In this document: positions 1-64,000 of the stretch, piece after piece
Numbering within the stretch: position 1 is the stretch's first letter
Layout of the letters: each line of letters starts with the position of its first letter
NCBI RefSeq assembly: GCF_037042905.1
Contig: NC_087251.1
Location: 13,208,001 to 13,272,000 of the forward strand
Direction of reading: 5' to 3'
DNA from: Lytechinus pictus
Lineage: Eukaryota
Length of the DNA: 64,000 nucleotides
The notes under the pieces: model-generated
Database searches by the model: none
What the model saw: the letters and a program-made list of their open reading frames with translations, nothing else
What the model was told of the DNA's origin: nothing
Program-made: the position numbers and the translations under genes

Positions 1-2457
1 TATACATATATACAAATAAAATATTTCATACTAAATGGCCACAAAACCATTCAGTTGCTGATAATTATGAATTCACTCTTAATTGAACATGTACAGACTA
101 ATATAATATCGCAATACTGTGCAAGATTAACTACAAAACAGTCTGCATAGGTCCACCTTCTATAAGGTGAATGGTTGATCAAGTCACAGTATTTTTCAAA
201 CCAGAATATGCAAAATGTGGTGGAGCATCAGGTGCTGAAGTAAACATGTTGGACTTATTTTGATTTTCAAAAAGCTATTTGATGAAAACTATTGCAAGCA
301 TCATCCATAGGAAAGTAGGGGTTGTTCAGGGAGCATTCAGAACAAAACAAATAAAGTTGAAAACAATTCACCCTATTTATTAATACAAAATTATGATTCT
401 GAAACTTAAAATTGCCCCAAAGTCTATTCAAACAACCAATTGGAATTATATTCAAACAACAAATGAATTGAGAAAAGTGAAGATTGAATACATTTCAATG
501 ACAATAATAAACTAACCCTTTAATTTTGTGGTTAAAAGAAATTATGATTTAAATTTCAGAAAACTGACCAACAGCCCATCAAGAATAAGATTGCACAAAT
601 TGAATTTAGCTTGAGTACGACTGTGATATGATGAGATTGGACTAAGGCAGATTGACATGTATAACTCACCAAACCCCAATGAGAGAATAGCAATTAAAGG
701 GGTACTTGGGGCTGAAATAATTCTATCTAAATAAATAGAGTAATATTCATTAAGCGAAATGCTGAAAATTTCATCAAAATCTGACAACAAATAACAAAGT
801 TGTTGAATTTTGTGAAAACAGTTATATGCATGTCATCATGAATATTCATTAGCTGGGCTGATGTCACATCCCCACTTTCCTTTATATTGTGTCATTACAT
901 GAAATCATAATTATTTCATATTTTCATACATGTGTATGTTATATCTCCCGTTTAATAAAATAAGTTGCAGCAATGAATATTGAATGCAGTTTAATCGCTT
1001 GTCACTCTTTGAGTTTGTGTTTAGTTATTGGAGGGAAAATTTGAAGGAACATAATTTCATGTAATAAAATACAGAAGAACAAGTGGGGATATGACATCAG
1101 TTTGCTCACTGAATATTCATGAGGACATGCATAGAACTGTTTCACCAAAATGATGCAAATTGTCTGATATTTCTTTTTCTGCAATTAAGGGATCCATAAA
1201 ATTAGGTGATATTGGGACTAGTACAAAATGTAATTCAGAATGAAAACAAGTAGGAAATAGACCCTGTAGAAAAAATTGAAATTTTTCATTAGTCTGGGCT
1301 ATTCAATTTTTCAAATATTACACTCAGTTGCTGACAGGCAAGATACATACTTTACTTTGTAAACTATGTGTACATCTAAATGTACAACTATAGAAAAGTT
1401 CCAAGTATATCCAATTGTGGGTTATGTTTTTTTCATGTTATGATTGGTGTATGCTATTTTATTGTAACTTTTTTTCAGCCTTAGGGCCACAATCAATTGC
1501 TTACATAAAATAGCCATATTTTATTCTATTTCATTGGTAGTTTCTAAACTGACACACATAAAATTTTTAGAGACCCTACGACAACTGAATCACTGCCACA
1601 CCCTAATTTAATCTTTCACATATTGTTTTAAATGTTAAATAAAAGCCAAAGAAAGATCTTTAACAAAGATAATTTTGTGGTGGAACCATAGAAAATTATC
1701 TGACTTGGGGATTGTCATGCGTTCACAATTTTTTTGGCACATTGAAGTTCATTATAATAAGCTGCTAATTTCAGCCTCTTCTTATATAATTGGAAAATTA
1801 TTATTCTTCGCTGAATTGGCAATTGACTGATGAGATTCAATGAAATATGCTGTATGTTTCAATCATTCAATCATCAGGTAGCCATTATCACAAATTTCCT
1901 TCCGTTTTAGTCATTTTTTTTCATGACATTCAAGGATTCAAGCAGACAGGTTTGGTGCGTTCAAGCAAAACCACAAATATGAATCTTATCCAAATAGCAT
2001 TCAAGCTCTTTTCTTATCAACCCTGATCATCCTTCATTTAAACAAAAGCAACTGCGCAGTCGGTGATAAAGGAATCATCTCTCAACCTAGAGTGTTATGC
2101 CACAACAATGACGGGAAGTTGTAATTGATATCCCCAATGTCTTAAAGAGATTTTTAGCAAATGCCACTCTGAAGAATCAGGTCATGGAACACACCTTTTT
2201 CAGTGTTTCATGTTTGTGTTTTAAAAGACATTTTGTTTTTGAAGTCAGACAAAAGAATGATGGAACACACCCATGTCAAAAACTGAAAATCTTCGGCGAT
2301 CCTAGAGTGATATATGATTGCTTGAATGAACATTCAACTGTTGTCTCCATCCATAGAACTTGAAAGATCACTATATAATTGTCCAATTTACAGAATGAAA
2401 TTCATCCATATATTATAATGATTTCTATATTCTTCAAGGTTGGTTGCCATCCAGTCT

Positions 2458-5400
2458 TTACAAATTGTGTTTCATAAACTGCTGCAGGGCACTAAGTCTT
2501 GCATCAATCTCAGACATCTCATTGGTATCATTGTACAGGGTTGCACTCCGATCTGCAGTATCAACAACATTTTAAAAACAATCACTTTGACCCTAAGTCA
2601 CAATAGAAGTTTAAAGTAAATCCTACCTTTCATTAAGCATGTGTGCATACCAGGGGCCTGTTTCATAAAAGACTTGTTATAACAAATGTGTAGTTTTTAT
2701 AACAACCATCAAATTGAATGATTTCAGTAGCTTTAAACTGTTATTGCAAATTTGCCATAAAGTTTTATGAAACGGTCCTCTGAATATGATCCAATCATGA
2801 GATGGCTGTAGGTGTAAACTTGGCCATGTAGTGCACTTATCTGACTTTATTTTAATGTAATTATAAAAAATAAGGAGCAGGAGGGTGTTTCACAAAGATT
2901 TAAGTGCAACTTAGAGTCAGACTTAAATGCCTAGTTGCATGTGTTATAAAAAGCATGACGCATTGGTCAGATCATGCCAAGAGGACGCGCACTACTGCCT
3001 ATCAATCAATAAGATTGTGCTTTGCATATCACATACACGTCGGCATTAAGTGCAACTCTAAGTCATACTTAAATCTTTGTGAAACATCCCCCAGGTTTTG
3101 TAAATATGACTTAAACTCTTTTAAATTTCTATTTGCATGAGGGTATTGTATATGTTAACACATAACCACATTGTTAAATCATATGTATTATTGCATACAC
3201 ACAATGGGCATTAAATAACAAGGGTATAATAATGCATTTAGCATGATTCTGCAGCCCCAGCGTATGCCAAGATGTCTCAATTAACACTTAAAATTATACT
3301 TTTCCTAAATCAAATACATTTATTAAGTCCAAGAGATTTGACATATGCAATTCATCTCTATTATGTTACATTTTAGAACAGTATTTTATCAAATTTGATT
3401 GGATAAAGATCACAAAGGAAAGGGATGGCTGCGAAACTCTGTAATCATGACTGTCCAAGCAAATTCAAAAGGGAAGGTGCCTGTTAAGGTGTTGTTTTCT
3501 AGTAGTCTTCCTTACCTTGGCCATTGTATTCAGTAAGCGGTCTGCTCCTAGTCTTGCCACCAGCCCCTCTCCTTGATGGATAGTCAGGATCAGGTGTACT
3601 CATTAACGTGAGGAAGAAAGTTAAGGAAATATCAAAGTGGTAAGGTTACCGTGGGAAAATGAAACCCAAGCCAGGGATGAAAATTAAAACCGTATCACTG
3701 AAACTGAATAACTTGTTTCAATGTATATATTGGTTTTAAGAGACCACACACATTGTAACATATCCAAACATGGAATGCTTCATTTCAATGTTCCAAAACA
3801 ATATAAGAGAACAACTCACTGATTCAGTGATTTAAGCACTAATAATATATTGAAGAAGTCAATAGTTAAAGCAGAACTTGATGTAGACAGACCAAGTAAA
3901 TATTCAATAATCCCTTAAATGACCATGTAATAAAATTTACTCAAAAAGGTATCAGTAGGTTTATATGATAAGGATATCTTTTGGGAGCAGCTCCAGTTTT
4001 CCTTCTGAATGGCTGAAAGGAAGAAGGAAAAAAAAGCAATTTATAATTTACATTATGAGCATATTCATTGGAGCATTCATTTAGGATGTAACACAAAGGG
4101 ATACAATTGATATTTTACAATTAATTTTGTAATTTTTGGACATGGTCTGCCATATCTTTACTCTCATCATTTATTTTAAATTGATTGTATTTGTTACTTC
4201 ATGTGCTACAAGGCCATGTTCTCAAGGTTATTTAATTTCTAATCATATGGTTTGGTATGACCATCATAAATTTGATATTAATGATATGCTTTTTGATAAG
4301 AAACATGTAAGACTGGATCATATATATCATTCACTCTGCATTCAATCATTCCAAAAGAACTATTAGCTTTTTTTTTTAGAGGCTCATCATAAAGGGTTGT
4401 GATTGATACAATTCAAATTCAAATTAAGGTTTATATGACTTAAATTGATAAATGGCAAAATTAAAACTCTATTTTAATTTGACTTTTATTTTTAATCAGC
4501 CACAACTCTTTGTAAAAATGAAGCCCAGATTAATCACATATACAGGATCAAAACGTTAACATTTGATAATCTGCAAGTCATACTGAGGGCAACACAGTTT
4601 TATAAACGAGACTGTTTTATTATAATAAATTACAATGCTATTCATTTATCTAGAGATTTAAAACCAGAGATGGCTTACCACATTTGGACTTGACCATGCT
4701 TTAGATGAAGAAGTCTTGCCTGGCTGCAGCACTTCTCGTAACCTCCTGTTTAAATGAGTAATACAAATGAAGATTCATTTATCTAATGACTAATCTTCAA
4801 TCGCTTTTCACTGAAGGACTGATATACCTCTGAGCTCATTCTGTGAATGTGTTGGCAAGTCATTTCATTAAAATTTGGGGTCCATTTCATATAGGACTTA
4901 CAACTATTGTAATTTTGTCATTGTGCCAACTAACATGGTAACGGGGCTCAGCAGCCAATCAGAATCAAGGTTTCCATAGTAGTTGTCATAATGGCAAAGT
5001 TACCATAGTTGAAACAGGCCACTGGTCTTAGTCCAGGGTTAGCTTTATAAAAACTATGAGAATACATGTACCAAACAATATCATTCTTACTTTTTTCCAT
5101 TACATATTTCAACTTCTCCATAGTTACCTACATATTATTTCTTGCATATTAGACATGTCTGTGTCCATCTCTTTGCAGATTTCTCCTACATATAAAATGC
5201 ATGGAACATTGTTTACATGGTCAAAAAGGGCACCTCAATATAAATGGCAACCCCAATTTTCAAAATAATATTTTTCTAGATTGATTAAAACAAAAGTCCT
5301 GTAGTCATATGAGCGATAGATGAAAGACAATTACCTTCTTCTTCCTTCTGAGGCATCAGATAGCACCTCCACATCACTGACTCCACCCCCAGATGATCTT

Positions 5401-8400
5401 CTGCTTCCAGCTGATGAGCTCCTTGAACGAAACCCTAAGATACAAAGATTCAATATGAACCATTCATTGCAAAGATCTTATTCAGAATCCAGCAAGAATC
5501 AGAATTACCTAAAAGAACCCTGGCAATTTTTGTAATCAATTTGTAAGGTTACAGTTAGGAGCTAAATTTTTTCATGATTTTTCTATTCAAGTCCAATGTT
5601 TGAGACCAAATGTGCAATGCCTAAGTATGTGGTTCTGAAATTATGCAACATCATGTAAATGCCTGTCTGAGTGTCAGACTCCAAATTGCTATAAAAAAAA
5701 GAAGATGATTCCATGTACAAATCCAATAAATTTCTGTTTTTAGACGAAATTCATAACTTACATCATTATTTCTACTTCTACTTAGTAAAACAAATTAATT
5801 TCAAGTTCAATCGCTGATGTGGTTTACGGTGCACCATGTGGAGTGTTATAGAAACAGTGGATAGAAGAAGAAAAGGAATTGGATAGGCGAGAAAGTGGAG
5901 ATTTGAGAGTAGAGTATTCTTTTCTTAAATGTAGTCCTGAAAAGAACTGTAAACCAGAAGAGATTGATGAGTTGAAAACAGCTTGAGTAGTAGGGTTGAT
6001 GAGGAGATGCTGGCTTGAGTCGGCGAGTAGAGATGATGAGTAGAAGCAGTAGAGAGACTCGACGTTTCGGGCAGGTTGACTGTCCGTCTTCAGGAGTGAG
6101 TGTTCGCTCATCAACCCTACTACTCAAGCTGTTTTCAACTCATCAATCTCTTCTGGTTTACAGTCCTTTTCAGGTCTACATTCAAGAAAAGAATACTCTA
6201 CTCTCAAATCTCCACTTTCTCACCTATCCAATTCCTTTTCTTCTTCTATCCACATCAGCGATTGTACATGCCACCATGCAAACCTTCAAACAACATCTAA
6301 TTTCAAGTTCTTTATGATCAGAAAAGTGTCACTGACAATTTACTTTAAAAAACCCTAAAAAGATACAAAAGGTAAAATAAAGGCAAACAAAGAGTTACAA
6401 AAATACATTAAAAATTTTGGGAAAAAAATACATAAGAGGACATTCTAATACTAACTATTTCAATATATGCATTTTGTATAATTCAATTATAAAAAAAAAT
6501 TACATTGTCTTAGATGATTATTCGACCAAGGGAATGTCGACTTAACTGTACTATCCTAATCACTGTCACAATGGGTACATTAAACATTGAATATGTAATG
6601 AATCTTACCTCTGTACCCATCAGAGAGCCGTTTCCTGGTTCTACACCTCTCCCCTGATAACCTTGATTTGCCACTAGACCGCACTGCACTGTTCTGTAAC
6701 CTGGCACTGGTTAAACACAAACAACACCACATATCAAAAATGAAAAAAAAATCATCAAACTGTACTAACCATCAAGAATATATTTTGATTAATTACTGGG
6801 TCTTAAATGTAATCATTGCACTTGTGTTTCAATATTGTTTCTTTATAAATCCTATAGGTTAACTCATCAATGAATAGAAATGAAAAGTAATTTACATATA
6901 AATTCATGGAATGATTCAACTGGAGAAAAGGATTTAAAAAATCATTACATTTATTTTTTGTGTGCTTCTTTGATGACTTGGAATTGGACTCTGATCTAAG
7001 TTTTTATTACTCCATTTCTCATACTTTTTCTCAAAACAAACATGGACTTTCCTTTGAATATTCATATACCAACCTTTTCAATTTGGATTCTTCCTCTCTA
7101 CGTTTCTTCTCTAGAATGTAAGCTGTAGGGTCAAATCTGGGACCTCTGGCACCTGATGAAAAGACAAGACCATACTCTGTTAGAGGGATGATATTCAATT
7201 TTTTTTCAGATGAAATGAAAATGACTAGATCATGATTACAAGTGACATTAATTTTAGCAAAAAACAGCAGGATTATTGGACTACATTATGTATTCCCTGA
7301 AAGAAATGAAAAGCTGTAAGGATCAATATTTTCCCCTCTTTCCTTATTTTAAAATTTTTCAATAAACATTATCACTGGTCAGAGTAACTATATTGAAACA
7401 GTGATTAATCTCCTTTCAAGTGATAAATGATTTAACCATAAATTTAATCTACTCAGTATTAACAATAGGTTGATAATCAGAAACTTATTAACAAACCTGC
7501 AGGTGAGATGCTTCGACTCCTACTCCCCACCGATGATACACTTGACCTTCGACCCCTTGAAAGTGATCTCTCTCTACTGCTTGTGTCTATTCTTGATCGA
7601 GGCCTAGATCTCGCTATGTCAGCTGATGGTGGTCTCCTAGCAACAGGTCTTGACTGACGTTGGGATAATGGGGTGGGTACCATTGGAGAACGGCTACTCC
7701 GCCTCGATGGACTGAGTTGGTTGGGAAGGAAATAAAGAGAAATAAAGATCATAGATTTGATATCAATTGTGCATAACTTCACTGAGTCTAATGTAGGATG
7801 TGTTTCTTCTTTTCATAGAACCCAAAATCAAGAAATAGGAAGGCAAACACAAAAGTAGAAACAAAACCTGCAGAAGCAACAGCAAAATACAAGCAATGTC
7901 TACTGGTCAAGAGAAGGGACCGAGTGAGCTAGACTACCCTGTTCAGATAGATGAATTGCGTACAAAAATTACTCAAGCTCAAAGATAGAATGTGTTCTAT
8001 GAAAGACAGAGGAATTTTGTCTGTCAAAATGTTATGGAGAATGTCAGACAAGTCATTTTACTGCCTAAGCAAAACAGTGCCCAAATGAAAGTAAAGGTCA
8101 GAGTCTTTAAGTTTTTTCTTTATGAACACACTCTGCATCGGGTCAAAGTTGATTAGGCACACTTTTTGTCAAAGAAAAACAGTGTGTTATGCTCACATGA
8201 CCAGAGAAGGAGTCATACTCCATTCAACAAATCAAAGGGACTGTTCACAAACAAAATTTTTTACAAGTACTCATCTATCCAAGAACCATCCCAGACTGGA
8301 ACTCCCTCACACCCTCAACCATTGAAATCAAGAGCACCAAAACCTTCAAGCAAACAGTACTTCAAACATTTACAAAGTAAAAACTAAAAACTGCCTTCTC

Positions 8401-35700: not shown

Positions 35701-38700
35701 GGATAACGGAAATGGGTGTTGTACGATAGGCCTATACAGATCAAAAATAAATATTATACATACCTCCAACCTTCGAAATATCTTGTTCGCGCGTAAATTA
35801 GAATATCGGGTTTGTCGTCGTTTGAACCATAATCATAAAGTTATTTTCAAAATACTTTTTAAGTACACTTAACATACACCCACCTATTCACAATTCTGAA
35901 TCATGGTCTCACTGAAACACTAAAAGGGTAATACGCAAATGCATCCGAACATCTTTTAGAAGAGTAAATATTGAGGTTTATGGATTTATGTCCTTTCTTT
36001 CCTTTTTAATTGTTAACATATCTACATGGTGATCAATTACATAAAATTCAATGAGTACCAGTAAGGAATAAAAATATGCAATGATGAATTACATCACTAT
36101 AGAATAAAGTAAGCAAGAGCTGCATTCCTTTACTGAGCAAAATCAAATGTTCTAAATAAATTTATTTCGGTTATCTTACTGTCATTGATTATTTTAAAGT
36201 AATATCTGACGAGTTGATCTGTCGATGGGTTCACCTTATACTTTAAAGAATGTGACAGACATTGCACCTCATTTAATTGTAAACAAATGACATTTTTAAG
36301 AAGAATGTCCTTTTTTGTTTGGGAACCGATTTTTTTTTCCAAGGAATAGGCATTAGGTAAAACAGTACCGTTTGATTGATTGGCTTAATTCAGCTTGATT
36401 GACACTATAATTACCGTAATGGGTTAATAAGAGGGTAATTATGATAATGAGTGTCATTTCATCTACAGAAATGGGTAAAAAGACTTTGGAGTATAATATA
36501 CGCAGCAATGATTAGGCCTACTACCCATCCCTTTGTTATGGTAACAAACCTAACATGTATGTCGAATAATATTACCTTTCGAGATGGTACGCCCCTCGAT
36601 CTCTTTGAGCATTCAGAACAACATATACCTCACCACTAGCTTGTCTTGTAAACTGTATAAATAAAATTTCAAAGCCAAGTAAAATATAGAGTTGCAACAA
36701 ATTATGTATCAGAGCCCTGTTATAATCAAAATTATGATGGTTGTCTCAGTTTGGAAAATGTATACTTGAAACGTTGGTGTTAATAAACTAAGCAATCAAG
36801 AGGCATTTGTGGCGGTAATTTTAGTGCGGGCAGAGTTGGGAACAGACCCATTATAGTCCCAATATTTTTAAAAGCTGTTAAAATGTCTACCTCTAGTCTT
36901 CACGACTGGTTCATCAGTTTAGAATTGATGGACTGGCATGAATGTAACTAAAAAGAAGTAAGTCTAGACCCTGAAAGCAATTGGCGCATAAATAGGGGGG
37001 GGGGGCGGTATGGGGCATATGGGGAGTTCCACGACAAAGAAATAAAGAGAAAACAAAAAAAATGGAAAGGAAAAGGGTGAAATATCATATTATTTTCTTC
37101 TTAATATATTGTCAAATCGTGGAGCTAAAAGAGGAATATCCATGGTCGAACTTTATAAAATAAAATAGAATGTTTTCTTACAAAATGCCAAAATATACTA
37201 CTCAAAAAAAGTTAAGGACCACTTTTTAAAACGTACATAAAGATTTTATACAAGGTGTTTTATTTCTGGAAATACCTCAGTACAACTGTCCTAAATGTCC
37301 TTAAACACGCTGTAATCAATTTCACGCATGGGTGGTTTCAGTTGTTGCACAATGTCTCTCGCATCACTGCACATCCTGAAAAGTGGTAAAAACGAATGTC
37401 TGAGTGTCTTTCAGGCAGTTCAGTAACGAGTGTGACCACCTCCTGCAGCAATAACGGCTTCACAGCGCTGTCTCATGGAGCTGATGAGGCGATTGATGTC
37501 TCTGACGTCCAGTGCATCCCATGCAGCCTCCAGAGCCACACCCAGCTGCTGCAGTCCAAGTGGATGGGCTTCGAGCTGCTCGAGACTCCTCCCCATCATG
37601 TCCCAGACGTGCTCTATCGGGTTTAAGTCCGGGGACCTCGCTGGCCACTCCATACGCTCAATCCCCTGGCCCTCAAGGAACTCGGTCACCACCCTAGCTC
37701 GGTGGGCACGGGCATTGTCATCCATGAAAATGATGTTTTGTCCCACATTTTCTGCAAATGGCACCACTATAGGTTCAAGGACCTCATCCCTGTACCTCAC
37801 TCCTGTCATTGCTCCCCCTGGGACCACGTAGAGACGAGTACGGTTGGCGTAGGTGATGCCTCCCCACACCATGACGCTGCCTCCCCCATAACGGTCATGT
37901 TCTGCAATACAGGGGTCTGCAAATCTCTCTCCTGGTCGCCTCCAGACTCTCGAACGTCCATCATTGTGGTCAAGGGAAAATCTGCTCTCATCTGTGAACA
38001 GAACTCTACGCCATTGCTGTCTGGTCCATCTGACATGCTCCCGGGCCAAGTTGAGACGAATTCTTCTGTGAGCAGGGGTGAGTGGGACACACTGAGCTGG
38101 CCGTCTGGCATGCATATTGGCTCTGTGAAGTCGGTTACGGATTGTTTGAGTGGAAACAATCACTCCAGTTGCTGCAGCGAAGTCATTGTTGAGGCGGCGT
38201 GCACTGTGAAAGCGGTTGCGGAGGCTGAGATTCGTCAAGTAGCGATCATCTCTAGGGGTTGTCGAAACTGGTCGGCCACTGCGGGGTCTCTTGGAGTATA
38301 GCCCTGTCTCTCGGTGTCTCTGATTTGCTCTGCTAATGACACTGTGTGACACGCCCATCATTCTGGCTACTCTTCGCTGACTGAGGCCAGCTTCCAGCAT
38401 CCCTAGGGCTCTGGCTACATCTGTTTCACTTAGGTGGTGTCTTGGCATTGCTGTTGTAGGCAAGTTGTTGATTGTACAGACTAAAGACGGAAAATGCTTT
38501 GGAAGACACTTGTCTTATGGCCCACTGCAATGATGCCAGAGACATCATGAAAGAACTGCATGTGTGAAATTGATTTCATTGTGTTTGATGGCATCCTGGA
38601 CAGCTGTATCTTGGCATTGCTGTTGTCAGCAATTTGTTGATTGTAGAGACTAAAGACAGAAAATGCATTTGAATCCACAGCCAGAGCCCTAGGGATGCTG

Positions 38701-41700
38701 GAAGCTGGCCTCAGTCAGCGAAGAGTAGCCAGAATGATGGGCGTGTCACACAGTGTCATTAGCAGAGCAAATCAAAGACACCGAGAGACAGGGCTATACT
38801 CCGAGAGACCCCGCAGTGGCCGACCAGTTTCGACAACCCCTAGAGATGATCGCTACTTGACGAATCTCAGCCTCCGCAACCACTTTCACAGTGCACGCCG
38901 CCTCAACAATGACTTCGCTGCAGCAACTGGAGTGATTGTTTCCACTCAAACAATCCGTAACCGACTTCACAGAGCCAATATGCATGCGAGACGGCCAGCT
39001 GAGTGTGTCCCACTCACCCCTGCTCACAGAAGAATTCGTCTCAACTGGGCCCGGGAGCATGTCAGATGGACCAGACAGCAATGGCGTAGAGTTCTGTTCA
39101 CAGATGAGAGCAGATTTTCCCTTGACCACAATGATGGACGTTCGAGAGTCTGGAGGCGACCATGCAGGAGAGAGATTTGCAGACCCCTGTATTGCAGAAC
39201 ATGACCGTTATGGGGGAGGCAGCGTCATGGTGTGGGGAGGCATCACCTACGCCAACCGTACTCGTCTCTACGTGGTCCCAGGGGGAGCAATGACAGGAGT
39301 GAGGTACAGGGATGAGGTCCTTGAACCTATAGTGGTGCCATTTGCAGAAAATGTGGGACAAAACATCATTTTCATGGATGACAATGCCCGTGCCCACCGA
39401 GCTAGGGTGGTGACCGAGTTCCTTGAGGGCCAGGGGATTGAGCGTATGGAGTGGCCAGCGAGGTCCCCGGACTTAAACCCGATAGAGCACGTCTGGGACA
39501 TGATGGGGAGGAGTCTCGAGCAGCTCGAAGCCCATCCACTTGGACTGCAGCAGCTGGGTGTGGCTCTGGAGGCTGCATGGGATGCACTGGACGTCAGAGA
39601 CATCAATCGCCTCATCAGCTCCATGAGACAGCGCTGTGAAGCCGTTATTGCTGCAGGAGGTGGTCACACTCGTTACTGAACTGCCTGAAAGACACTCAGA
39701 CATTCGTTTTTACCACTTCATGTCGGTAGCTGATACCCCTCGGGGCCCACTTTTCAGGATGTGCAGTGATGCGAGAGACATTGTGCAACAACTGAAACCA
39801 CCCATGTGTGAAATTGATTACAGCGTGTTTAAGGACATTTAGGACAGTTGTACTGAGGTATTTCCAGAAATAAAACACCTTGTATAAAATCTTTATGTAC
39901 GTTTTAAAAAGTGGTCCTTAACTTTTTTTGAGTAGTGTATTTGCTCGTGCGCGACTTTAATGATATTTTGCCCTATAACACACCATGTTTGGCTCATCAA
40001 AATGGCTCATTACGCCACTGCTTCAAGCTCAACTATACTTGCAGTATATTCATCCACTATAATGTGGCAAAGGGAAATGTTCAAAATTAATAAAAGATCA
40101 ATTAAAGTATTTTTCCTCAGTTTTAGACTTAATCCGAATACTGCACTTACTAGCTCGGAAGCACGATCCCAGAAGGTCGCAACTGTGTTGTTGCTACATC
40201 CAGATCGGTCGGTGTCTTCAGTAGGGCAGACTGTGTAGTTGAACCCAGACGGTTCATCTGGATCAGTAGAACCACAGAAGGATAGGTTTAGAGCCATGTA
40301 ACCTGGGAACGTTTCACCCAGGACGATGTACTCACGACTCACCTCGGCAACGTCATGGGGTATGTAGGCACCACCGACGCCTGTCCACATCGTTGTCTGT
40401 TGAGAAGATGGAGAATTGAAAACAAAATAAGGGAACTGATGAGGTCCAAGGAGAGGGGCTAAAACATCATCATTAGTATCATTATAACCGACATTGCATT
40501 TCCTCCCTTTCCTCAAAATCATTATCGTCATTGATAGGATCATACCATCATCATCATCATCATCATCATCAACAACATAATCATTATCATATTCATTATC
40601 ACTATCTTCTTCTCCTTCATCATCAAACAGTAGACAACATTATTAATTAACAATTTCTACCAAAATTAATACGACTCAAGAAATGAAGATAGGAAATATT
40701 TGGGCGCAAAGTGCTAGAAATCGAGTCCATGGGAAATGAAACGCGATCTGTCACACGAGATATGCCACCAAATGCTATGAGAGATTTCTGTCCTACTTTA
40801 ATAAAAAATTATTTTTCTCTGATTTTTATTTTTCAATGGCTAATAATGCTGCTTGAAGTAGTCTTAAAAAGTCTACACTCTGACTCAACCAATTCAGAGT
40901 GAGGTAGTAAACTTTACAAGTTCGTAATGACAGTAAGAATGAATATCTGATTTTCAAGATTAATTCATACAGATGAAAATTTGATGGGGTAAACAAAGCA
41001 TAAAACAACTTAGCATGCACTAGAGCTTACTTTAAAGAAGTATATAGGGTAAAGAAATACGGGAAATGAATGATCAGGATGTCAAGAGAAAAAAAAATCA
41101 GCTTCAGATAGATGCACGTCATTAACAAAGCCCGACTCCTACTTACCGTTCCAGGTTTAGTATTCGGTGGAGCCATGGTAAGGAATTCATCATAGGCGTT
41201 GTATGGGGTATTACAGGGATCCATCCCTCGGATAGCTCCAAGAAAGGAATTCACGGCAGCATCACACTGGACATCACCACTAAACACGATAAAGATATAG
41301 TTGGAAAGATAGAATGATATATATTTTTTATTTTGGGGATGAATTTTCTGTTGACATGGATCCGTCGCAAAACTTAATTGTTTTTGATGCACAAAAATTA
41401 AAGTAATAAAATACAAGAGGGGAGGGTGTGTGGGTAATGATGAAAGTGATGATGAATGTAGTTCTGTATGTGACGGTAAGAGAGGGAGAAAAGTTGGAGA
41501 GAGAAAAAGGGGCATGTCATGGTGATGGCGAGAGGAATGAGAAAGGGAAACAGGTTTAAGAGTGAGTGAAGTTGAGGGAGAGGGCATGTGTGAGGTGTGT
41601 ATGTATTGGTTTGTGTTTAAGGGGAAAGAAGAGAGAGAGAGCAAAAAAAAAATAGAATGGAGGTCCGTGTGTGGATTTGAATATGGGTGAGAGTATGAAA

Positions 41701-44029
41701 AGGAAAAAGAGCATACTTTGGGTACGGCAAACGTTCGAAGAGTGTGAGGGTGTGGGTGATAATAGAGAGAAAGAAGGTGCGTGTGTGGGTAGCGATGATT
41801 ATAAAAGCAGAAGATAACAAACGTAATAGGGTAAGAGGGGAAGAAACATTGTGGGCGTGTGGGAGAGGGACAGGGGTGATGGTAAACAAGGAGGGGAGAT
41901 TGTGAGTATGTAGGTCAGTGTATAGGAGAAAGAGAGTGTATGTGTGGGGTTAGACTGGAGAAAGGGAGAGTGTGGGGTGAGAGCGATGGTAAGGAAGATA
42001 TCGAAAGAGAGAGATTTGGAATCTTGGGCGGGATGAGTTGTGTTTGTAAGTCAGGGTGAAAGGAGAAAGATGAATTGAGTGTGTGGGAGTGAGAAATTGA
42101 TAGATAGAGAGAAAGGGGACAGGAATAAAATTTATCTGTTCGTGACGGTGAGAGAAAGTGCGTGTGTGGTAGACGTATCTAGAAAGACAGTGAGATGGAT
42201 GGTATAGGGATTGAAATAATGGTGTGTGGGCGTGGGTAGAAGTGAAAGCTGAACAGATGCGTCCATGGTAAGGTATAATTATGGGTAACGATGAGAGACC
42301 GGTAAAGAGAGAGGAGAGAGATAAACAGAGAGATTTAGATGTGTGTGGGTGTGAGAGAGGGTGTGTGTAGGGTGTGTGTGTGTGTGTGTGTGTGCGAGGA
42401 TGAGGGAGAAATCGAAATAGAGTGCGCATTGTATTGGATGAAGGAAATGAGGGGAAGAAAGAGAGAAACAATGAGTATAGGATAATGAGAATATTCAGAA
42501 AGAATTTCTGAGCTGAGAGATATAATATTGAGAATAAAGATTATGATCATTATAAAGCCTAAAATAATTTTTTTTTAATTTCAATAGCATTTATTCAATC
42601 ATCTGTATATACATTTCACATTTATATCAATTAAACATAATCAAATAATACATACAGAAGACGATACAAAGATTTCCCAGTACAGTTTTGTTCATTTCTA
42701 GTCTCCTAAGCAATTCTGATTTAAATAAAAACGTTAGATTTGATGGTCTATTGTCTACTCTCCTGTAATTACGTAACAAAATTGATTTATACACAGTCCA
42801 AAAAGCTATATTAATGATATCATCTAGTTCTTTGTGCTCGTTATTTTTTATCAAAAGATCGACATCGATAATAACGTGTTTATTGAAGGCTTTTTTGATC
42901 AGCCAAATTATATATGACCAAAAATTTTGATTCAATTTACAAGTGATCAAGGCATGTGTTATGTCCTCTTCTACATGACAACTATTACAATAAGCATCTT
43001 CACTTATACGCCATTTACATGAATTTCTTTTCACAGGCAATAAATTATATAGTATTTTGAAATTAAATTATCTAAGTTTGTTTTCTTTTACTGTTAACAA
43101 GTTTCTCTCGAAACAAGTATTCCAGACTATACTCATTTTCGAAATATTTTCCCAAAAGAAACAGCAACGTGAATTTGACCCTTCATGACGTATAACATAA
43201 TTGTAAAAGTATCTTGAAGGTACGTGGTCCAGACATTTTACTGAGTTACCTATTTTTAGTTTGGGTATATATCAAGATTCGCAGATCTTTGTAGGTTCTC
43301 AATAATATATTTTGATAGCCAAATTTCAGGTATAGCTAGGAGCTTGCCTCAGTTTTGAATAATAAAAAATGACAGATCTTTTATTATTTTTAAATTTCAG
43401 CATTGATGATATTTCGGATACATCTTTCAAGCCTCCATCAACATTCAAAATGTCTTCCAAGTATATTATTCCACTAAGCCTAATACACTGGTCACATTTG
43501 CTCTACGGCGAGTCGAAAACAGCCGTTTTATTCATTTTTATTCAAACCACCTATATTTAGCTGGTACAAAAAATGTTATAACGACTGTTTTCGACTCGCC
43601 GTACGGCTGCCGTAGAACAAATGTGACCGAGGTATTAATGAAATTAATCTTCAGACATTTGTAATGCATTATCAATATTTTTTAAGAACAAGTCATCAAC
43701 CATACAAAAATATATTTGTATTCATTATTGTATTTTTATTTCTCAAAAACAAATAAAAAAGAAGATTTTTACCTGACACAACCATCACAAAACAATTACT
43801 ATTGTTACCGTCATGGCTTTAATATAACTCTCAAAACATTACAAAGGTGGGAATGGGGGACTTACTAATAGGGTAGACAAAGACCCCCGTGGAGGCACTG
43901 GCGGTACTCCTGGCATCTACCTTTCAAAACGTCTGTCATGTTCCAAGTTGTTCCTGGTCCAGGTAGTGTATAGGCATTAGTCGTCATCGTCATTGATGAC
44001 AAGCAAATGAACACAGGGAGGAGATTCAT
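32709..44029 (-). CDS. ADP-ribosyl cyclase / cADPR hydrolase (CD38/BST1/Aplysia cyclase family), 7 coding exons, about 328 aa, signal peptide and probable GPI-anchor signal
   Basis: GT-AG, phase-consistent exons 43866-44029, 41147-41279, 40151-40396, 36576-36652, 35006-35107, 33859-33951, 32709-32880 (987 nt). Translation: MNLLPVFICLSS..GPGTT..LKGRCQEY..CDAAVNSF..DPCN..TMWT..VLGETFPGYMALNLSFCG..NYTVCP..CSNNTVATFWDRASELFTRQASGEVYVVLN..STFARIEV..ETC..NTC..WLQCARYTDSPYC, then a hydrophobic tail. The 10 family cysteines and the catalytic Glu are conserved. Confidence 0.93.
32957..33570 (+). mobile_element. Truncated piggyBac-like non-autonomous element end
   Basis: Begins TTAA|CCCTAATAAGACTTGGGG, a piggyBac-type TTAA-CCC terminus. 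No matching right end was found. Confidence 0.4.
37420..38448 (-). CDS. Tc1-family DD34E transposase, open reading frame, 342 aa from ATG
   Basis: N-terminal HTH (GLSQRRVARMMGVSHSVISR), GRP motif, and catalytic FTDESRF, MDDNARAH and SPDLNPIE, with 34 residues between the second D and E. Confidence 0.93.
   Translation of the reverse strand: MPRHHLSETDVARALGMLEAGLSQRRVARMMGVSHSVISRANQRHRETGLYSKRPRSGRPVSTTPRDDRYLTNLSLRNRFHSARRLNNDFAAATGVIVSTQTIRNRLHRANMHARRPAQCVPLTPAHRRIRLNLAREHVRWTRQQWRRVLFTDESRFSLDHNDGRSRVWRRPGERFADPCIAEHDRYGGGSVMVWGGITYANRTRLYVVPGGAMTGVRYRDEVLEPIVVPFAENVGQNIIFMDDNARAHRARVVTEFLEGQGIERMEWPARSPDLNPIEHVWDMMGRSLEQLEAHPLGLQQLGVALEAAWDALDVRDINRLISSMRQRCEAVIAAGGGHTRY
38679..39679 (+). 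pseudogene. Second Tc1 transposase copy, lacking the first ~11 codons and frameshifted
   Basis: Near-identical to the minus-strand copy. It starts at ARALGM and has a 4-bp insertion at ~39161-39166, which splits it into ORFs 38695-39204 and 38936-39679. Confidence 0.93.
41410..42540. repeat. Purine-rich degenerate (GA/GT)n low-complexity tract in cyclase intron 1
   Basis: Strong G/A skew on the plus strand with GAGA and GTGT runs. Confidence 0.75.
42567..43660 (-). mobile_element. L1/Tx1-clade LINE 3' fragment, interrupted by a MITE
   Basis: zf-RVT-like segment FNFKILYNLLPV..KWRISEDAYCNSCHVEEDITHALITC..FW, then AATAAA and an A tail (T run at ~42568-42576). Confidence 0.75.
43484..43634. mobile_element. 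MITE of the TAC..GGTCACATTTGCTCTACGGCG family (PIF/Harbinger-like)
   Basis: Long TIRs TACACTGGTCACATTTGCTCTACGGCG / GCCGTAGAACAAATGTGACCGAGGTA. A related copy lies at ~29547-29688. Confidence 0.8.
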
Positions 44030-58225: not shown

Positions 58226-60697
58226 ATAATAACAATAATGATAATAATGATAATAATAGCAATAATAATAAGTGGCGTAATGCATAATTTCAATTTGATT
58301 ATAATGTACCTCCCCCATGCAGACAGCGCCATCTCTTCAGATGCCACTAGTGTGAATATGACACGGGCGTAGATCCCGGTGGGGGAATATATCTCCCCAC
58401 TTTTCGGGAGAGGGGGATGGCATATGTACAATCATCTCCCACAATTTTCACGAAAGAAACGATATTTGTTTGAATTATCAAATGATTAATACTGCTCCTA
58501 ATGCATGTATTCATCTTCAGATACAGTAAAAGTGCTCGAATTTGCCTAAGTTTACATTCTTAAAAACGCAAAAATTTTCACGCGCTCGCTCCGCTCCCGC
58601 GTTCGATATATTCTTACAAAAATTTGACCATGGCAAATTCTTATGTTTAGCTTATTGCAAAAGTTTTTTCAGCTAACATGTGAGTATAGTTGTAATAAAT
58701 CCATTCATGAATTGAATAATTTAAATGACTTTTAAATGAATCGGTTACAAATTTGATCATAAACGAATAAAAACTTCATTGGTCATATCCTGGCATCATT
58801 GTGGAAGCAGGAGATGATTGTACAAAAAATATACTTTTATACCCTGTACTTCAAGTTTATTATACGATGAGTTACTGATGACATTGATCAAATCATTCAG
58901 GCTTCTTACGACAACAATATTTCCTACATATCCTACAATTTTATTTATTTTTATAGGATATTTTCAAACGCATTTATTGACGCAACAATCTAATGAATAT
59001 GTCAAATAGGAAATTTGCTGGAAATTTTGAACGTTGCATCATCTCTCAATATAATCTTAAATATTATTCAAAATTTTCCCTATATCTGCAATCTTTTCAT
59101 CTTTATTTGCATCATTGTGCCTTTTCCGCATTTTTTGAAGTTTATATTATGGGATGTGATGGCCTTAAAATCATTTCATAAGGCACCGTTATTCCCGATA
59201 ATCATGATCCCATATTTTTTATTCTTAACTCACTTCTAACTAGTGAGCAAATGAGTTTTCATTTAACAAATCTCGACTGTTTAATCCTTTTTTTTTAATA
59301 TAACAACAATCAAACTGTTCTTGCTCTAATGCCCGTTTCGTAGTTTAAGTTAATGGATATGGCGTGTGTGTTTTAAATGAATTGTCTTTTTATGTGTCTA
59401 TACTTTTCTTCTTCAAATAATGCATGATACTATTTATCTAGGCAAGTTTGTTAATAGGGATCGTATAACTATTTTGATTTGTTATGAATTGTGTAATTAT
59501 GTGACTTAATTACTATCATGTTTATATTAATTGTAAAAAGATTCTGCAATTCAGCCTTTGGCTGCGACTGAATTTTTTAAATAAACCATTACCATTACCA
59601 TTTATATTTATTTTCCCTTTCATTATTGATAAATTACCATTACTCTCTTATGCACATTGTTTTAAACGACTGAAGCAAATTTTTAAAGGCTCTCTCACTA
59701 CGCTCGCTCGCCACAATTCTCCTCTTATTTCACATCCCTTAAAAGACGTTTTTTTTAATCATTCTGAAAATGGGTTCGCTTCGCTCGTTCGCATCAAGAT
59801 ATTAACTGTAATTCAGTAGTTTATATCATTGAAATTAAAGAAAAAGGTAAAAGATATGAATAAAATATAACGATAAGTAATAAAATTGTGTGAGAAGAAG
59901 TGAGAATTTTTTTAGATGAAGTAAAATGGCGACAATAGTCAAATATGACTAATCGCCACTCAAACCAAAAAGAAAAAGAATCTGTGTTGGAGGAAAAACG
60001 GAAAGCAATTGGAATAAAACAGATACATTTTAACATTTTGTGACAACTTTGCCACCCTTATTATCATTGTACCCCTAGGTGAGCACAGACTTTACCCTTT
60101 TGGCCTTTTTGTTCCAGCTGCAACTGAGGACATTAATGAATGTAAACAAAAGTTTCTTTCAGACATCTCCAGCATTAACTTTTTAATATTTTTTTTTCAT
60201 GGCATTTAAAGTAGGCTTACATTTCATATTTAATTTAATAGTATTTCTCTACACTTTTGCCAAGCATGGCATTGATTAACAGAAGGAAAATAGAGCCTAT
60301 GCCATTTCATGTGAATCACAGCTCCGTGTAAAGCAGATATCATCACGATGGTCTCGGTGTGTGGGGGAGGGGTGGGGCGCATTTGGCAGGTTATATAGGT
60401 AAATGATGTTTTCGAATCAATCTTCTTAGCTCATCCATGTGCTCTTCACGATGAAAGTTTACTTTTATCCATATTGCGCAAATCATTTTTTACGAACTTT
60501 AAAGTAAGTGGTGCTCACTCAAGCAGAATTTTTTTTTTTCGACATATCGTCATTCTCTTAAAGAGATCTTTGCCAATGCATAAATGTGGAAAAAAACTTT
60601 AGGATCATTTACCTATATATTATTTCATAAGATTATTTCTAGGCGTAAACTTGTTTTGATGCGCACTGTATATCACCAGGAGCTGGACATTGAGATA

Positions 60698-60937
60698 CAG
60701 TGGTGCTAAAAAGTAAGTGAACCCCACCAGAAAATGAACATAAAAATATTTAAAAGTGATCAAATTCTGCCATCATTTTGGATATTTAATTGTGAAGAAA
60801 GGCGATAAAATATTACATTCGATAAAGTTTGTTTTTTTCTAGGCTCGCTGAACATTGAAGTTTTGTTGTCTACGTTTAACACTCGGCACGAAGGAGTGCA
60901 TTTTCTGGTGGGGTTTACGAACTTTTTAGCACCACTG
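60698..60937. mobile_element. Tc1/mariner-type MITE
   Basis: TA|CAGTGGTGCTAAAAAGT..CCCCACCAGAAAATG ... CATTTTCTGGTGGGG..ACTTTTTAGCACCACTG|TA. Confidence 0.85.
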
Positions 60938-61309
60938 TATAGCTTATTAAGGAACAGAAGATGCAGCCACGGTCCGCCCAAGAACTGAATCTTGAACTTT
61001 ACTATTGCATTGTGTTTTGTGCTTGAACTTCGAAGATACCTTAATCGCGTTCCGTTCAACACATAGATGTATACGGTAGGCACTTTTGATGACAAAGTAC
61101 AGTGAGGGGCGATAAAATGTCCAGCTCCTACGTCACTATCCATCCGACGGTTCGCCGATGAATATTCATTAGATCGTGGTCGTGTGCATGTGTGTGTGTA
61201 CAATACCAAGTGTGAACAACCAACGAGAGTTTTCATATGGTGTGTGTGTGTATAAAACAACGTAGGAGTTTAGAGTGTAGAAAATAAGTGTTTGATGAAG
61301 TTTACATAA

Positions 61310-64000
61310 GAGGAAATAATATAAATATATGGAGGACAATGGAAGATGAGGTGAGGCAAGTGTGCAGTGAGGTTTTTTTTTTCAGAAGAGGAGATAATAC
61401 AAATATATTATGGAGGACAATGTAAGATGAGCTGAGGCAAGTGTACAGTGAGGTTTTTCAAAAAAGGAGATAATACAAATATATGTGGAGGACAATGTAA
61501 GATGAGATGAGGCAAGTGTGCAGTGAGGTTTTTTTTTTCAAAAAAGGAGATAATACAAATATATATGGAGGACAATGTAAGATGAGATGAGGCAAGTGTA
61601 CGGTGAGGTTTTATCAAAAAATGTATAATGATAAAATATATGTAGAGGACAATGTAAGATGAGCTGAGGCAAGTGTGCAGTGAGGTTTTTCCAAAAGAGG
61701 AGATAATATAAATATATGTGGAGGATAATGTAAGATGAGCTGAGGCAAGTGTGCAGTGAGGTTTTTTCAAAAGAGGAGATAATATAAATATATATGGAGG
61801 ACAATGTAAGATGAGATGAGGCAAGTGTGCAGTGAGGGTTTTTTTTTCAAAAAAGGAGATAATACAAATATATATGGAGGACAATGTAAGATGAGATGAG
61901 GCAAGTGTGCAGTGAGGTTTTTTCCAAAGAGGAGATAAAATAAATATATGTGAAGGACAATGTAAGGTGAGATGAGGCAAGTGTGCAGTGAGGTTTTTCC
62001 AAAAGAGGAAATAATATAAATATATGGAGGACAATGGAAGATGAGGTGAGGCAAGTGTGCAGTGAGGTTTTTTTTTTAGAAGAGGAGATAATACAAATAT
62101 ATTATGGAGGACAATGTAAGATGAGCTGAGGCAAGTGTACAGTGAGGTTTTTCAAAAAAGGAGATAATACAAATATATGTGGAGGACAATGTAAGATGAG
62201 ATGAGGCAAGTATGCAGTGAGGTTTTTTCAAAAGAGGAGATAATATAAATATATGTGGAGGATAATGTAAGATGAGATGAAGCAAGTGTGCAGTGAGGTT
62301 TTTTTCAAAAGAGGAGACAATATAAATATATGTGGAGGACAATGTAAGATGAGATGAGGCAAGTGTGCAGTGAGGTTTTTTCAGAAGAGGAGATAATACA
62401 AATATATTATGGAGGACAATGTAAGATGAGCTGAGGCAAGTGTACAGTGAGGTTTTTTCAAAAGAGGAGATAAAATAAATATATGTGAAGGACAATGTAA
62501 GATGAGATGAGGCAAGTGTACGGTGAGGTTTTATCAAAAAATGTATAATGATAAAATATATGTAGAGGACAATGTAAGATGAGCTGAGGCAAGTGTGCAG
62601 TGAGGTTTTTCCAAAAGAGGAGATAATATAAATATATGTGGAGGATAATGTAAGATGAGCTGTGGCAAGTGTGCAGTGAGGTTTTTTTCAAAAGAAGAGA
62701 TAATACAAATATATATGGAGGACAATGTAAGATGAGATGAGGCAAGTGTGCAGTGAGGTTTTTTTTTTCAAAAAAGGAGATAATACAAATATATATGGAG
62801 GACAATGTAAGATGAGATGAGGCAAGTGTGCAGTGAGGTTTTTTCAAAAGAGGAGATAATATAAATATATGTGGAGGATAATGTAAGATGAGCTGAGGCA
62901 AGTGTGCAGTGAGGTTTTTTTCAAAAGAGGAGATAATACAAATATATATGGAGGACAATGTAAGATGAGATGAGGCAAGTGTGCAGTGAGGTTTTTTTTT
63001 TCAAAAAAGGAGATAATACAAATATATATGGAGGACAATGTAAGATGAGATGAGGCAAGTGTGCAGTGAGGTTTTTTCAAAAGAGGAGATAAAATAAATA
63101 TATGTGAAGGACAATGTAAGATGAGATGAGGCAAGTGTGCAGTGAGGTTTTTCCAAAAGAGGAGATAATATAAATATATGTGGAGGATAATGTAAGATGA
63201 GCTGAGGCAAGTGTGCAGTGAGGTTTTTTTCAAAAGAGGAGATAATACAAATATATATGGAGGACAATGTAAGATGAGATGAGGCAAGTGTGCAGTGAGG
63301 TTTTTTCAAAAAAGGAGATAATACAAATATATGTGGAGGACAATGTAAGATGAGATGAGGCAAGTATGCAGTGAGGTTTTTTCAAAAGAGGAGATAATAT
63401 AAATATATGTGGAGGATAATGTAAGATGAGATGAGGCAAGTGTGCAGTGAGGTTTTTTTCAAAAGAGGAGACAATATAAATATATGTGGAGGACAATGTA
63501 AGATGAGATGAGGCAAGTGTGCAGTGAGGTTTTTTCAGAAGAGGAGATAATACAAATATATTATGGAGGACAATGTAAGATGAGCTGAGGCAAGTGTACA
63601 GTGAGGTTTTTTCAAAAGAGGAGATAAAATAAATATATGTGAAGGACAATGTAAGATGAGATGAGGCAAGTGTACGGTGAGGTTTTATCAAAAAATGTAT
63701 AATGATAAAATATATGTAGAGGACAATGTAAGATGAGCTGAGGCAAGTGTGCAGTGAGGTTTTTCCAAAAGAGGAGATAATATAAATATATGTGGAGGAT
63801 AATGTAAGATGAGCTGAGGCAAGTGTGCAGTGAGGTTTTTTCAAAAGAGGAGATAATACAAATATATATGGAGGACAATGTAAGATGAGATGAGGCAAGT
63901 GTGCAGTGAGGTTTTTTTTTTCAAAAAAGGAGATAATACAAATATATATGGAGGACAATGTAAGATGAGATGAGGCAAGTGTGCAGTGAGGTTTTTTCAA
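61310..64000. repeat. ~77-bp satellite/minisatellite array, about 35 units, running off the window end
   Basis: The unit is approximately GGAGATAATACAAATATATATGGAGGACAATGTAAGATGAGATGAGGCAAGTGTGCAGTGAGGT(n)CAAAAGA with variable T runs. Confidence 0.97.

Follow-up and report, generated by a model that had tools for sequence, protein, structure and literature searches.

We analyzed a 64,000-nucleotide window of the Lytechinus pictus genome (NCBI RefSeq assembly GCF_037042905.1, contig NC_087251.1, positions 13,208,001 to 13,272,000 of the forward strand), in which an intron of an ADP-ribosyl cyclase gene on the minus strand contains a palindromic transposon. The unit spans 2742 bp (37196-39937) and is built from the 3' half of a DD34E Tc1 element, present twice in inverted orientation, with TA on each side. 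Positions are numbered along the window, meaning the whole 64,000-nucleotide stretch, and monomer positions along the 1896-bp parent element; L numbers denote element loci fetched from the genome, X numbers sequencing runs and C numbers contigs. The unit comprises the following parts, with TIR standing for terminal inverted repeat:

37194..37195, no strand: left TA target-site duplication, from the sequence and from run X1, whose empty allele has one TA
37196..38416, minus strand: left arm, monomer 642-1896 inverted, 1221 bp, from the arm alignment
37196..37386, minus strand: left outer 3'-type TIR, with AATAAA at 37259-37264 on the host pre-mRNA strand
37420..38448, minus strand: full-length transposase open reading frame (ORF), 342 aa, D153-D244-E279 (DD34E)
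38417..38678, minus strand: spacer (loop), 262 bp, without the 5' TIR
38667..38690, plus strand: fold-back junction, monomer 213/642, with a 1-bp overlap and 16 exact matches at 13 insertion sites
38679..39937, plus strand: right arm, monomer 642-1896, 1259 bp, start codon absent
39743..39937, plus strand: right outer 3'-type TIR, with AATAAA at 39869-39874
39938..39939, no strand: right TA target-site duplication, from the sequence and run X1

Alignment of the arms to each other and to the monomer reproduced the architecture given in the original prediction, which had been made from the letters of the window: arms of 1221 and 1259 bp around a 262-bp spacer, outer termini from the same end and a flanking TA. 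Both outer ends correspond to the 3' end of the 1896-bp monomer, and the 5' TIR and first 212 bp of the monomer are absent. The spacer begins at monomer position 213 in the 5' untranslated region (UTR) of the element, has lost one 167-bp tandem unit and extends over the first 32 bp of the ORF; it contains two splice-acceptor-like sites ending at 38650 and 38481. The differences between the arms were also as predicted, with eight substitutions (one being C>T at the left terminal base, 37196), a private 4-bp insertion in the right arm (39161-39164) that shifts the reading frame and a 34-bp block absent from the left arm at 37386/37387, between CCACTT repeats, which clips the inner TIR edge. In addition to its frameshift, the right arm is missing the first 11 codons. 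The left ORF departs from the family sequence by E53K and W134L, residue 134 being W or F in the 11 other alignment rows. Among the termini of fetched palindromes, 132 of 134 begin with CAC, and the left terminus of the window unit (TAC) is one of the two that have changed. Judged from its sequence (terminal C>T, W134L and frameshift), the window copy is decaying.

The 1896-bp parent monomer ends in 195-bp TIRs that are identical over their first 34 bp and ~84% alike overall. Its 5' UTR holds the 167-bp tandem units, and GTCCT(A/T) occurs at positions 93 and 102 of its 3' TIR as two additional motifs without counterpart in the 5' TIR. The 342-aa transposase contains the domains PF13936 (helix-turn-helix, HTH), PF01498 (Tc3-type HTH) and PF13358 (DDE_3) and the triad D153, D244 and E279, with the 34 residues between the second D and the E that characterize the Tc1 DD34E group. 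TIRs and a TA duplication likewise agree with Tc1, with TA found on both sides of all 83 fetched loci that have both outer ends. Copies differ from the reference by 262 substitutions over 162,939 sites, and this divergence of only 0.16% indicates a very recent burst of the family.

We performed a whole-genome census of exact 30-mers from the two kinds of end, revealing 395 3'-type versus 130 5'-type ends, from which we estimate roughly 130-140 units with two 3' ends. An unbiased stretch, where the lists of both ends are complete (C1 to C3:68.9 Mb), contained 64 loci: by pattern, 35 were 3'/3' units, 21 monomers and 3 composites with a 5' end inside, and at the other 5 a single end was seen. 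When the single-end loci were fetched, three proved to be palindromes and two monomers, giving 41 palindromes versus 23 monomers. Palindromic units are thus more than half of the family's insertions in this stretch. No inverted 5'/5' pair was found among the 100 of 130 5' ends listed.

The same junctions recur with different flanks, which indicates movement after rearrangement. The junction of the window unit (213/642) had 16 exact matches representing 13 independent TA sites, because three matches on C10 share flanks (segmental duplication) and another two belong to a single complex locus. Four of the 13 sites, including the window copy, have lost one UTR unit, each at a different crossover point; the loss is therefore recurrent, and a single sub-lineage of 2772-bp copies is ruled out. 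A second junction (286/606, 2905 bp) had 25 exact matches, with two full ORFs in most copies. The suggestion in the original prediction that the palindrome might be mobile as a unit is therefore borne out: it is a real mirror-image element, mobile rather than a one-off, and a family-wide by-product of which the window locus itself is an ordinary, decaying member.

Palindromic units range from 1.4 to 3.1 kb, the largest being ~3.1 kb, and mostly exceed the 1896-bp parent. We fetched 70 palindromic loci for an ORF count, a biased set in which two are duplicates of one insertion, and found one full ORF in 35, two in 14 and none in 21, so that 49 of 70 keep at least one. At L067 a single arm was seen, and at L085 the second arm is truncated. 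With 2742 bp and a 342-aa ORF, the window unit falls outside the definition of a miniature inverted-repeat transposable element (MITE; under ~1 kb and non-coding), and it shares with elements of the Rpmar17/Goblin type the replacement of one end by the inverted other end.

Two higher-order arrangements were seen among the fetched loci. L132 (G000:C7:21209500-21217000) holds at 1126-6187 a second-order palindrome of 5.06 kb, in which a partial unit and a complete inverted one are separated by 23 bp of right flank in inverted orientation; this looks like template switching in repair. At L134-L136 (G000:C10:17438500-17464500), a 5.3-kb segment with one palindromic unit is repeated at 99.9% identity, and either a recent tandem duplication or an assembly error is possible.

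The host gene and the sequences flanking the insertion are as follows:

43866..44029, minus strand: first coding exon of the cyclase, from a spliced contig in X1
41148..41279, minus strand: cyclase exon 2, from the X1 contig and Pfam
40151..40396, minus strand: cyclase exon 3, from PF02267 and the Lytechinus variegatus match
36576..36652, minus strand: cyclase exon 4, from the X1 contig and Pfam
36978..37195, plus strand: left part of an older MITE (start approximate), from flank searches
39938..40020, plus strand: right part of the older MITE, from the X1 contig and flank searches

Three exons match PF02267, although only exon 3 passes the curated Pfam cut-off alone (E = 1.4e-12). This identifies an ADP-ribosyl cyclase and rules out adenylate or guanylate cyclase as the host. 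Exon 3 is 99% identical to the ADP-ribosyl cyclase of Lytechinus variegatus and 90% identical to the alpha form of Strongylocentrotus purpuratus. As predicted, the unit fills most of the third intron, counting from the first coding exon (36653-40150, 3498 bp), and the sequences on its two sides rejoin into a single older MITE. Searching with the left flank led to 19 fetched loci, four of which also match the right flank, close by and in the same orientation (L118, L120, L121 and L128; E 3e-5 to 0.08), and the MITE loci L113 and L119 read through both flanks by eye. Run X1 yielded a contig spliced across cyclase exons 1-4 (depth 42) and an intronic contig (depth 2.1) in which the left flank is joined straight to 39938 with one TA. 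Because the latter holds the empty allele, the insertion is polymorphic and the TA duplication is confirmed.

Across 60 palindromes, we distinguished 29 junction types after merging variants by hand. The two halves overlap by at least 1 bp in 21 of these types and none is blunt, compared with an expectation of 57% blunt; overlaps of at least 3 bp occur in 13 of the 21 (three of them imperfect) versus 5.4% expected, and the remaining 8 types carry 1-7 bp of filler. Long arms begin at monomer 3-765, seven of them within 3-91, short arms begin at monomer 521-1733, and spacers are 62-1299 bp long. No long arm in any junction type retains donor flank between the halves. Insertion of one copy into another is ruled out as a source, since none of the 29 short arms starts at TA and no junction has an intact position 1. 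Outer ends were uniformly of the 3' type: none of 137 had two or more 5'-type letters and 7 had one, although the 5' and 3' TIRs share inner identical runs of 13-23 bp.

Variants within the arms point to a common donor and to later exchange. The minor allele G1479C, present in 13 of 134 arm or monomer segments, is shared by the two arms in three different junction types and also occurs in monomer L143, which indicates that the two arms derive from one donor. Overall, 12 of 59 elements share a variant between their arms, compared with 0.11 expected by chance, although 5 of the 12 share only G1479C, which may be donor-inherited. In the multi-copy junction families of L080, L095, L096, L097 and L099, the shared variant is absent or one-armed in relatives with the same junction, and the same sharing confined to one copy was found at 5 of the 13 sites of the window unit's junction (L131, L132, L133, L137 and L141). 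Since such variants are missing or one-armed in other members of the junction family, the arms appear to have been homogenized after formation, although a polishing artifact may be an alternative source. In contrast to these relatives, the arms of the window unit share no private variants with each other.

We also compared the element with eight runs in all, including one DNA-like run of another organism label. In four runs of the host species, element contigs reach depths of 29-160, in monomer order. None of the four runs compared with the window junction has a contig spanning it, and no run is known to carry the insertion. Likewise, no fold-back joint was listed in any of the eight runs, but contigs drop rare variants and diced RNA escapes poly(A) data, and we therefore did not count this as evidence of absence; missing cover of the 5' TIR in run X8 was likewise given no weight. 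Apparent opposite-strand joints in X21 and X24 were rejected, being internal deletions of the monomer by their coordinates. One X2 contig links monomer position 956, directly behind an AG, to unrelated sequence (L050:2140) and may represent splicing of a host exon into the ORF of the transposase.

Editing-like changes were concentrated in the TIRs. In X2 and X5, the 5' TIR (L050:1227-1353) shows T>C changes only, and three of the five sites face a C in the 3' TIR, compared with 8 of 63 T positions (p = 0.012), as expected for A-to-I editing of antisense RNA with the two unlike TIRs paired. The edited TIR stem belongs to read-through RNA of monomers, with most of the changes on the antisense strand and enriched where A faces C. 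Raw reads of X24, which has another organism label and fixed differences from the family, contain strand-consistent A>G changes in both TIRs (window 39790-39840), and one X3 contig (depth 2.25) contains an A>G cluster in the ORF body, found by eye. Editing in the ORF body would call for either a long hairpin or pairing of sense with antisense RNA. Allelic variants may be an alternative reading of these editing-like changes.

How the palindromes arose is less certain, and we consider the chances about even that the window unit is a copy of a mobile 3'/3' fold-back derivative formed when transposase paired two 3' ends and the inner ends were end-joined. Under this mechanism, transposase would pair the 3' ends of two sister copies and the pair would be inserted at a new TA, after which the two free inner ends would probably be trimmed and joined by microhomology end-joining. 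Later spread would occur by cut-and-paste, with transposase supplied either by monomers or by the ORF of the unit itself; both the sister-copy origin and this spread are steps that we infer. Pairing of two 3' ends accounts for the hard edge at position 1, the pure 3' ends, the TA duplication and the missing 5'/5' forms. Sister-chromatid transposition in maize yields inverted fragments with a target duplication (bioRxiv 2020.01.07.897926), and Mos1 with two right ends is reported to transpose 26-fold better in vitro (PMC4505599). By analogy, the 3' end is likely the stronger transposase substrate, with two right ends likely to jump best. Several points weigh against this origin. The end preference of this Tc1 rests on the Mos1 analogy and the 3' TIR motifs, and in L076, with a 243/1107 junction, neither arm has G1479C. 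Chimeric TIRs could have been erased by conversion between arms, which can itself create shared alleles, and central deletion in a small number of larger palindromes could explain the many junction types. The assembly may lack palindromes that are very long or perfect (largest unit ~3.1 kb, shortest spacer 62 bp), and the contigs of the eight runs, subject to the loss of rare variants, contain no fold-back joint.

A doubtful but credible alternative is gap repair as published for Aedes Goblin (PMC3814204), in which, after excision of a monomer, the growing 5' TIR strand changes template to the 3' TIR, synthesis is broken off and the two strands are joined by microhomology, with 3'/3' products then favored in later transposition. 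The identity of the TIRs over their first 34 bp speaks for it, as do the microhomology and the filler, and the same-template arms and the missing flank capture fit it too. However, the TIRs share the further 13-23-bp runs and yet 0 of 137 ends are chimeric, and 5'/5' singletons in place would be expected, whereas none was found among the 100 5' ends listed. We regard as unlikely the hypothesis proposed for Rpmar17 (PMC4678618), that a few head-to-head dimers or large palindromes spread first and were each shortened by independent central deletions. Secondary deletions do occur (L036, L080, L084 and L141), the 167-bp UTR unit was repeatedly lost at differing crossovers and every spacer is 62 bp or more, but the presence of G1479C in some palindromes and its absence from others define at least two allele backgrounds that must have arisen separately, none of the copies retains two 5' TIRs or flank between its halves, and the absence of short arms starting at TA removes nested insertion as the source. 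An assembly or sequencing fold-back is next to impossible. Long palindromes are a known source of read artifacts, and the junction at 38678/38679 is unspanned in the public runs compared; against this stand the unique flanks, TA on both sides, the private arm differences, the identical junction at 13 sites and the X1 empty allele joining the flanks at one TA. Together, these observations rule out an assembly artifact, as the original prediction had argued from the arm differences.

That prediction had also proposed the window unit as a candidate hairpin locus silencing its own family. Folding of the carrier pre-mRNA is indeed plausible (predicted at -2689 kcal/mol with 1214 long-range pairs and a longest perfect helix of 546 bp), but the locus loses its special standing, being one of ~130-140 such units. 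The unit is an inverted duplication in a transcribed unit, the intron of a gene spliced in X1, with X1 itself carrying the empty allele. Transcription from the host gene in carriers would pass through the antisense arm, the spacer, the sense arm and then AATAAA at 37264, and the modeled transcripts could form a 1.2-kb hairpin or a spliced, truncated cyclase; use of the acceptor-like sites in the spacer would shorten the cyclase and splice out the antisense arm, with exon 3 joined to 38650 or 38481 predicted to reach a stop within 7 and 16 codons, respectively. We consider it improbable that palindromes, including the window copy, act like Mu killer or Ac killer, with read-through hairpin RNA being diced and the family silenced in trans. 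The predicted fold, the transcription of the cyclase in X1, the X3 contig and the maize precedent (PMC8224964; bioRxiv 2020.01.07.897926) speak for this reading, as does the A-to-G editing of element RNA in TIR stems, from which the double-stranded RNA machinery would see the element. However, palindromic lineages kept amplifying (25 and 13 sites), which argues against strong silencing so far, copies are only 0.16% apart with most keeping ORFs, and element contigs are deep in four host-species runs. The dominant edited RNA also requires a 5' TIR, which most palindromes lack, and the spacer splice acceptors could remove the antisense arm. Still rather unlikely is a broader proposal, that coding, mobile, self-homogenizing palindromes are the family's best-moving form and out-jump the parent, and that those landing in genes become hairpin sources, a built-in silencing trigger with polymorphic killer alleles in a wild population.

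Several published systems resemble these units in part, Rpmar17 most closely. In the mariner elements Rpmar17 and Rpmar49 of Rhodnius prolixus, as described in PMC4678618, the 5' part is similarly replaced by an inverted 3' part, and the 227 rearranged copies of Rpmar17, mostly with different breakpoints, outnumber full-length copies. Those elements are mostly 900-950 bp, below parent size, and non-autonomous (PMC4678618), whereas the Tc1 units are 1.4-3.1 kb, mostly above parent size, coding in 49 of 70 cases and amplified with their junctions (25 matches, 13 sites). The Drosophila mariner MITEs Dromar7, 11, 28 and 36, in the account of PMC4161770, also have one end swapped for the inverted other, always in one direction, with long TIRs and amplification by transposition; there the 5' end is duplicated in copies under 1 kb, while here it is the 3' end and coding capacity is kept. 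Goblin, derived from Ozma in Aedes aegypti, is reported to have both sides of its junction from the right subterminal region, inverted microhomology and 15 copies (PMC3814204), but it is a 213-bp product of one event that kept a 28-bp left TIR, in contrast to the 29 junction types, kilobase size and pure 3' TIRs found here.

Maize Mu killer and Ac killer share the inverted transposon duplication in a host transcription unit (PMC8224964; bioRxiv 2020.01.07.897926), and the Ac composite insertions are described as inverted fragments with a target duplication produced by sister-chromatid transposition (bioRxiv 2020.01.07.897926). According to these sources, the maize killers are rare single loci built from 5' termini, with double-stranded RNA, small interfering RNA and heritable silencing demonstrated (PMC8224964; bioRxiv 2020.01.07.897926); the Tc1 palindromes are built from 3' termini, number ~130-140 mobile units and have a putative silencing role only. 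Engineered Mos1 with two right inverted repeats likewise doubles a single end of an element whose natural ends are unlike, but as presented in PMC4505599 it is a laboratory construct with 28-bp ends, whereas the 3'/3' units here are natural. Relative to known one-end replacements, the new features are size above the parent, mostly coding units, a majority of insertions, strict 3'/3' polarity and arm conversion. We found no report of coding, larger-than-parent 3'/3' Tc1 units in the open-licence literature, supplements excluded.

How a host first recognizes an invading DNA transposon is an open question in animals, and the maize killers represent one route. In this family, found here in a genus of laboratory animals, the inverted duplications are mobile, often coding and, at least at the window site, polymorphic. 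Crosses combined with small-RNA sequencing could thus test end asymmetry, the origin of long-TIR or foldback elements, conversion between palindrome arms and hairpin-triggered silencing.

The family also extends beyond this genome. A transposase attributed to the sea spider Nymphon striatum (P0122) is 90% identical to the family, and runs under other organism labels contain the element at 99.8% or more, which suggests horizontal transfer, likely recent, among marine invertebrates. A search of the present genome for other Tc1 families that fold back, using a distant transposase, gave 117 matches of near-equal score, apparently all from this same family. L078, L088, L143 and L144 carry independent insertions of 0.58-3.8 kb within the 3' TIR (monomer ~1745-1790), three of which lie at ~1790 beside TTAA, suggesting a target hotspot of another transposon. 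Private ORF insertions of 3-5 bp (CATG twice, GTAC, ATCTA and GTAGA) occur in arms of L031, L045, L096, L133 and L094; these are unusual for so young a family and are perhaps repair scars.

Finally, the window contains three other repeats. A 246-bp element at 60695-60940, with 45-bp inverted ends starting TA-CAGT, is a Tc1-type MITE of another family, and a 397-bp hairpin element at 5857-6253 has 147-bp arms at 97% identity. A tandem array of 73-80-bp units with strong GC skew occupies 61297-64000 and continues past the window end.

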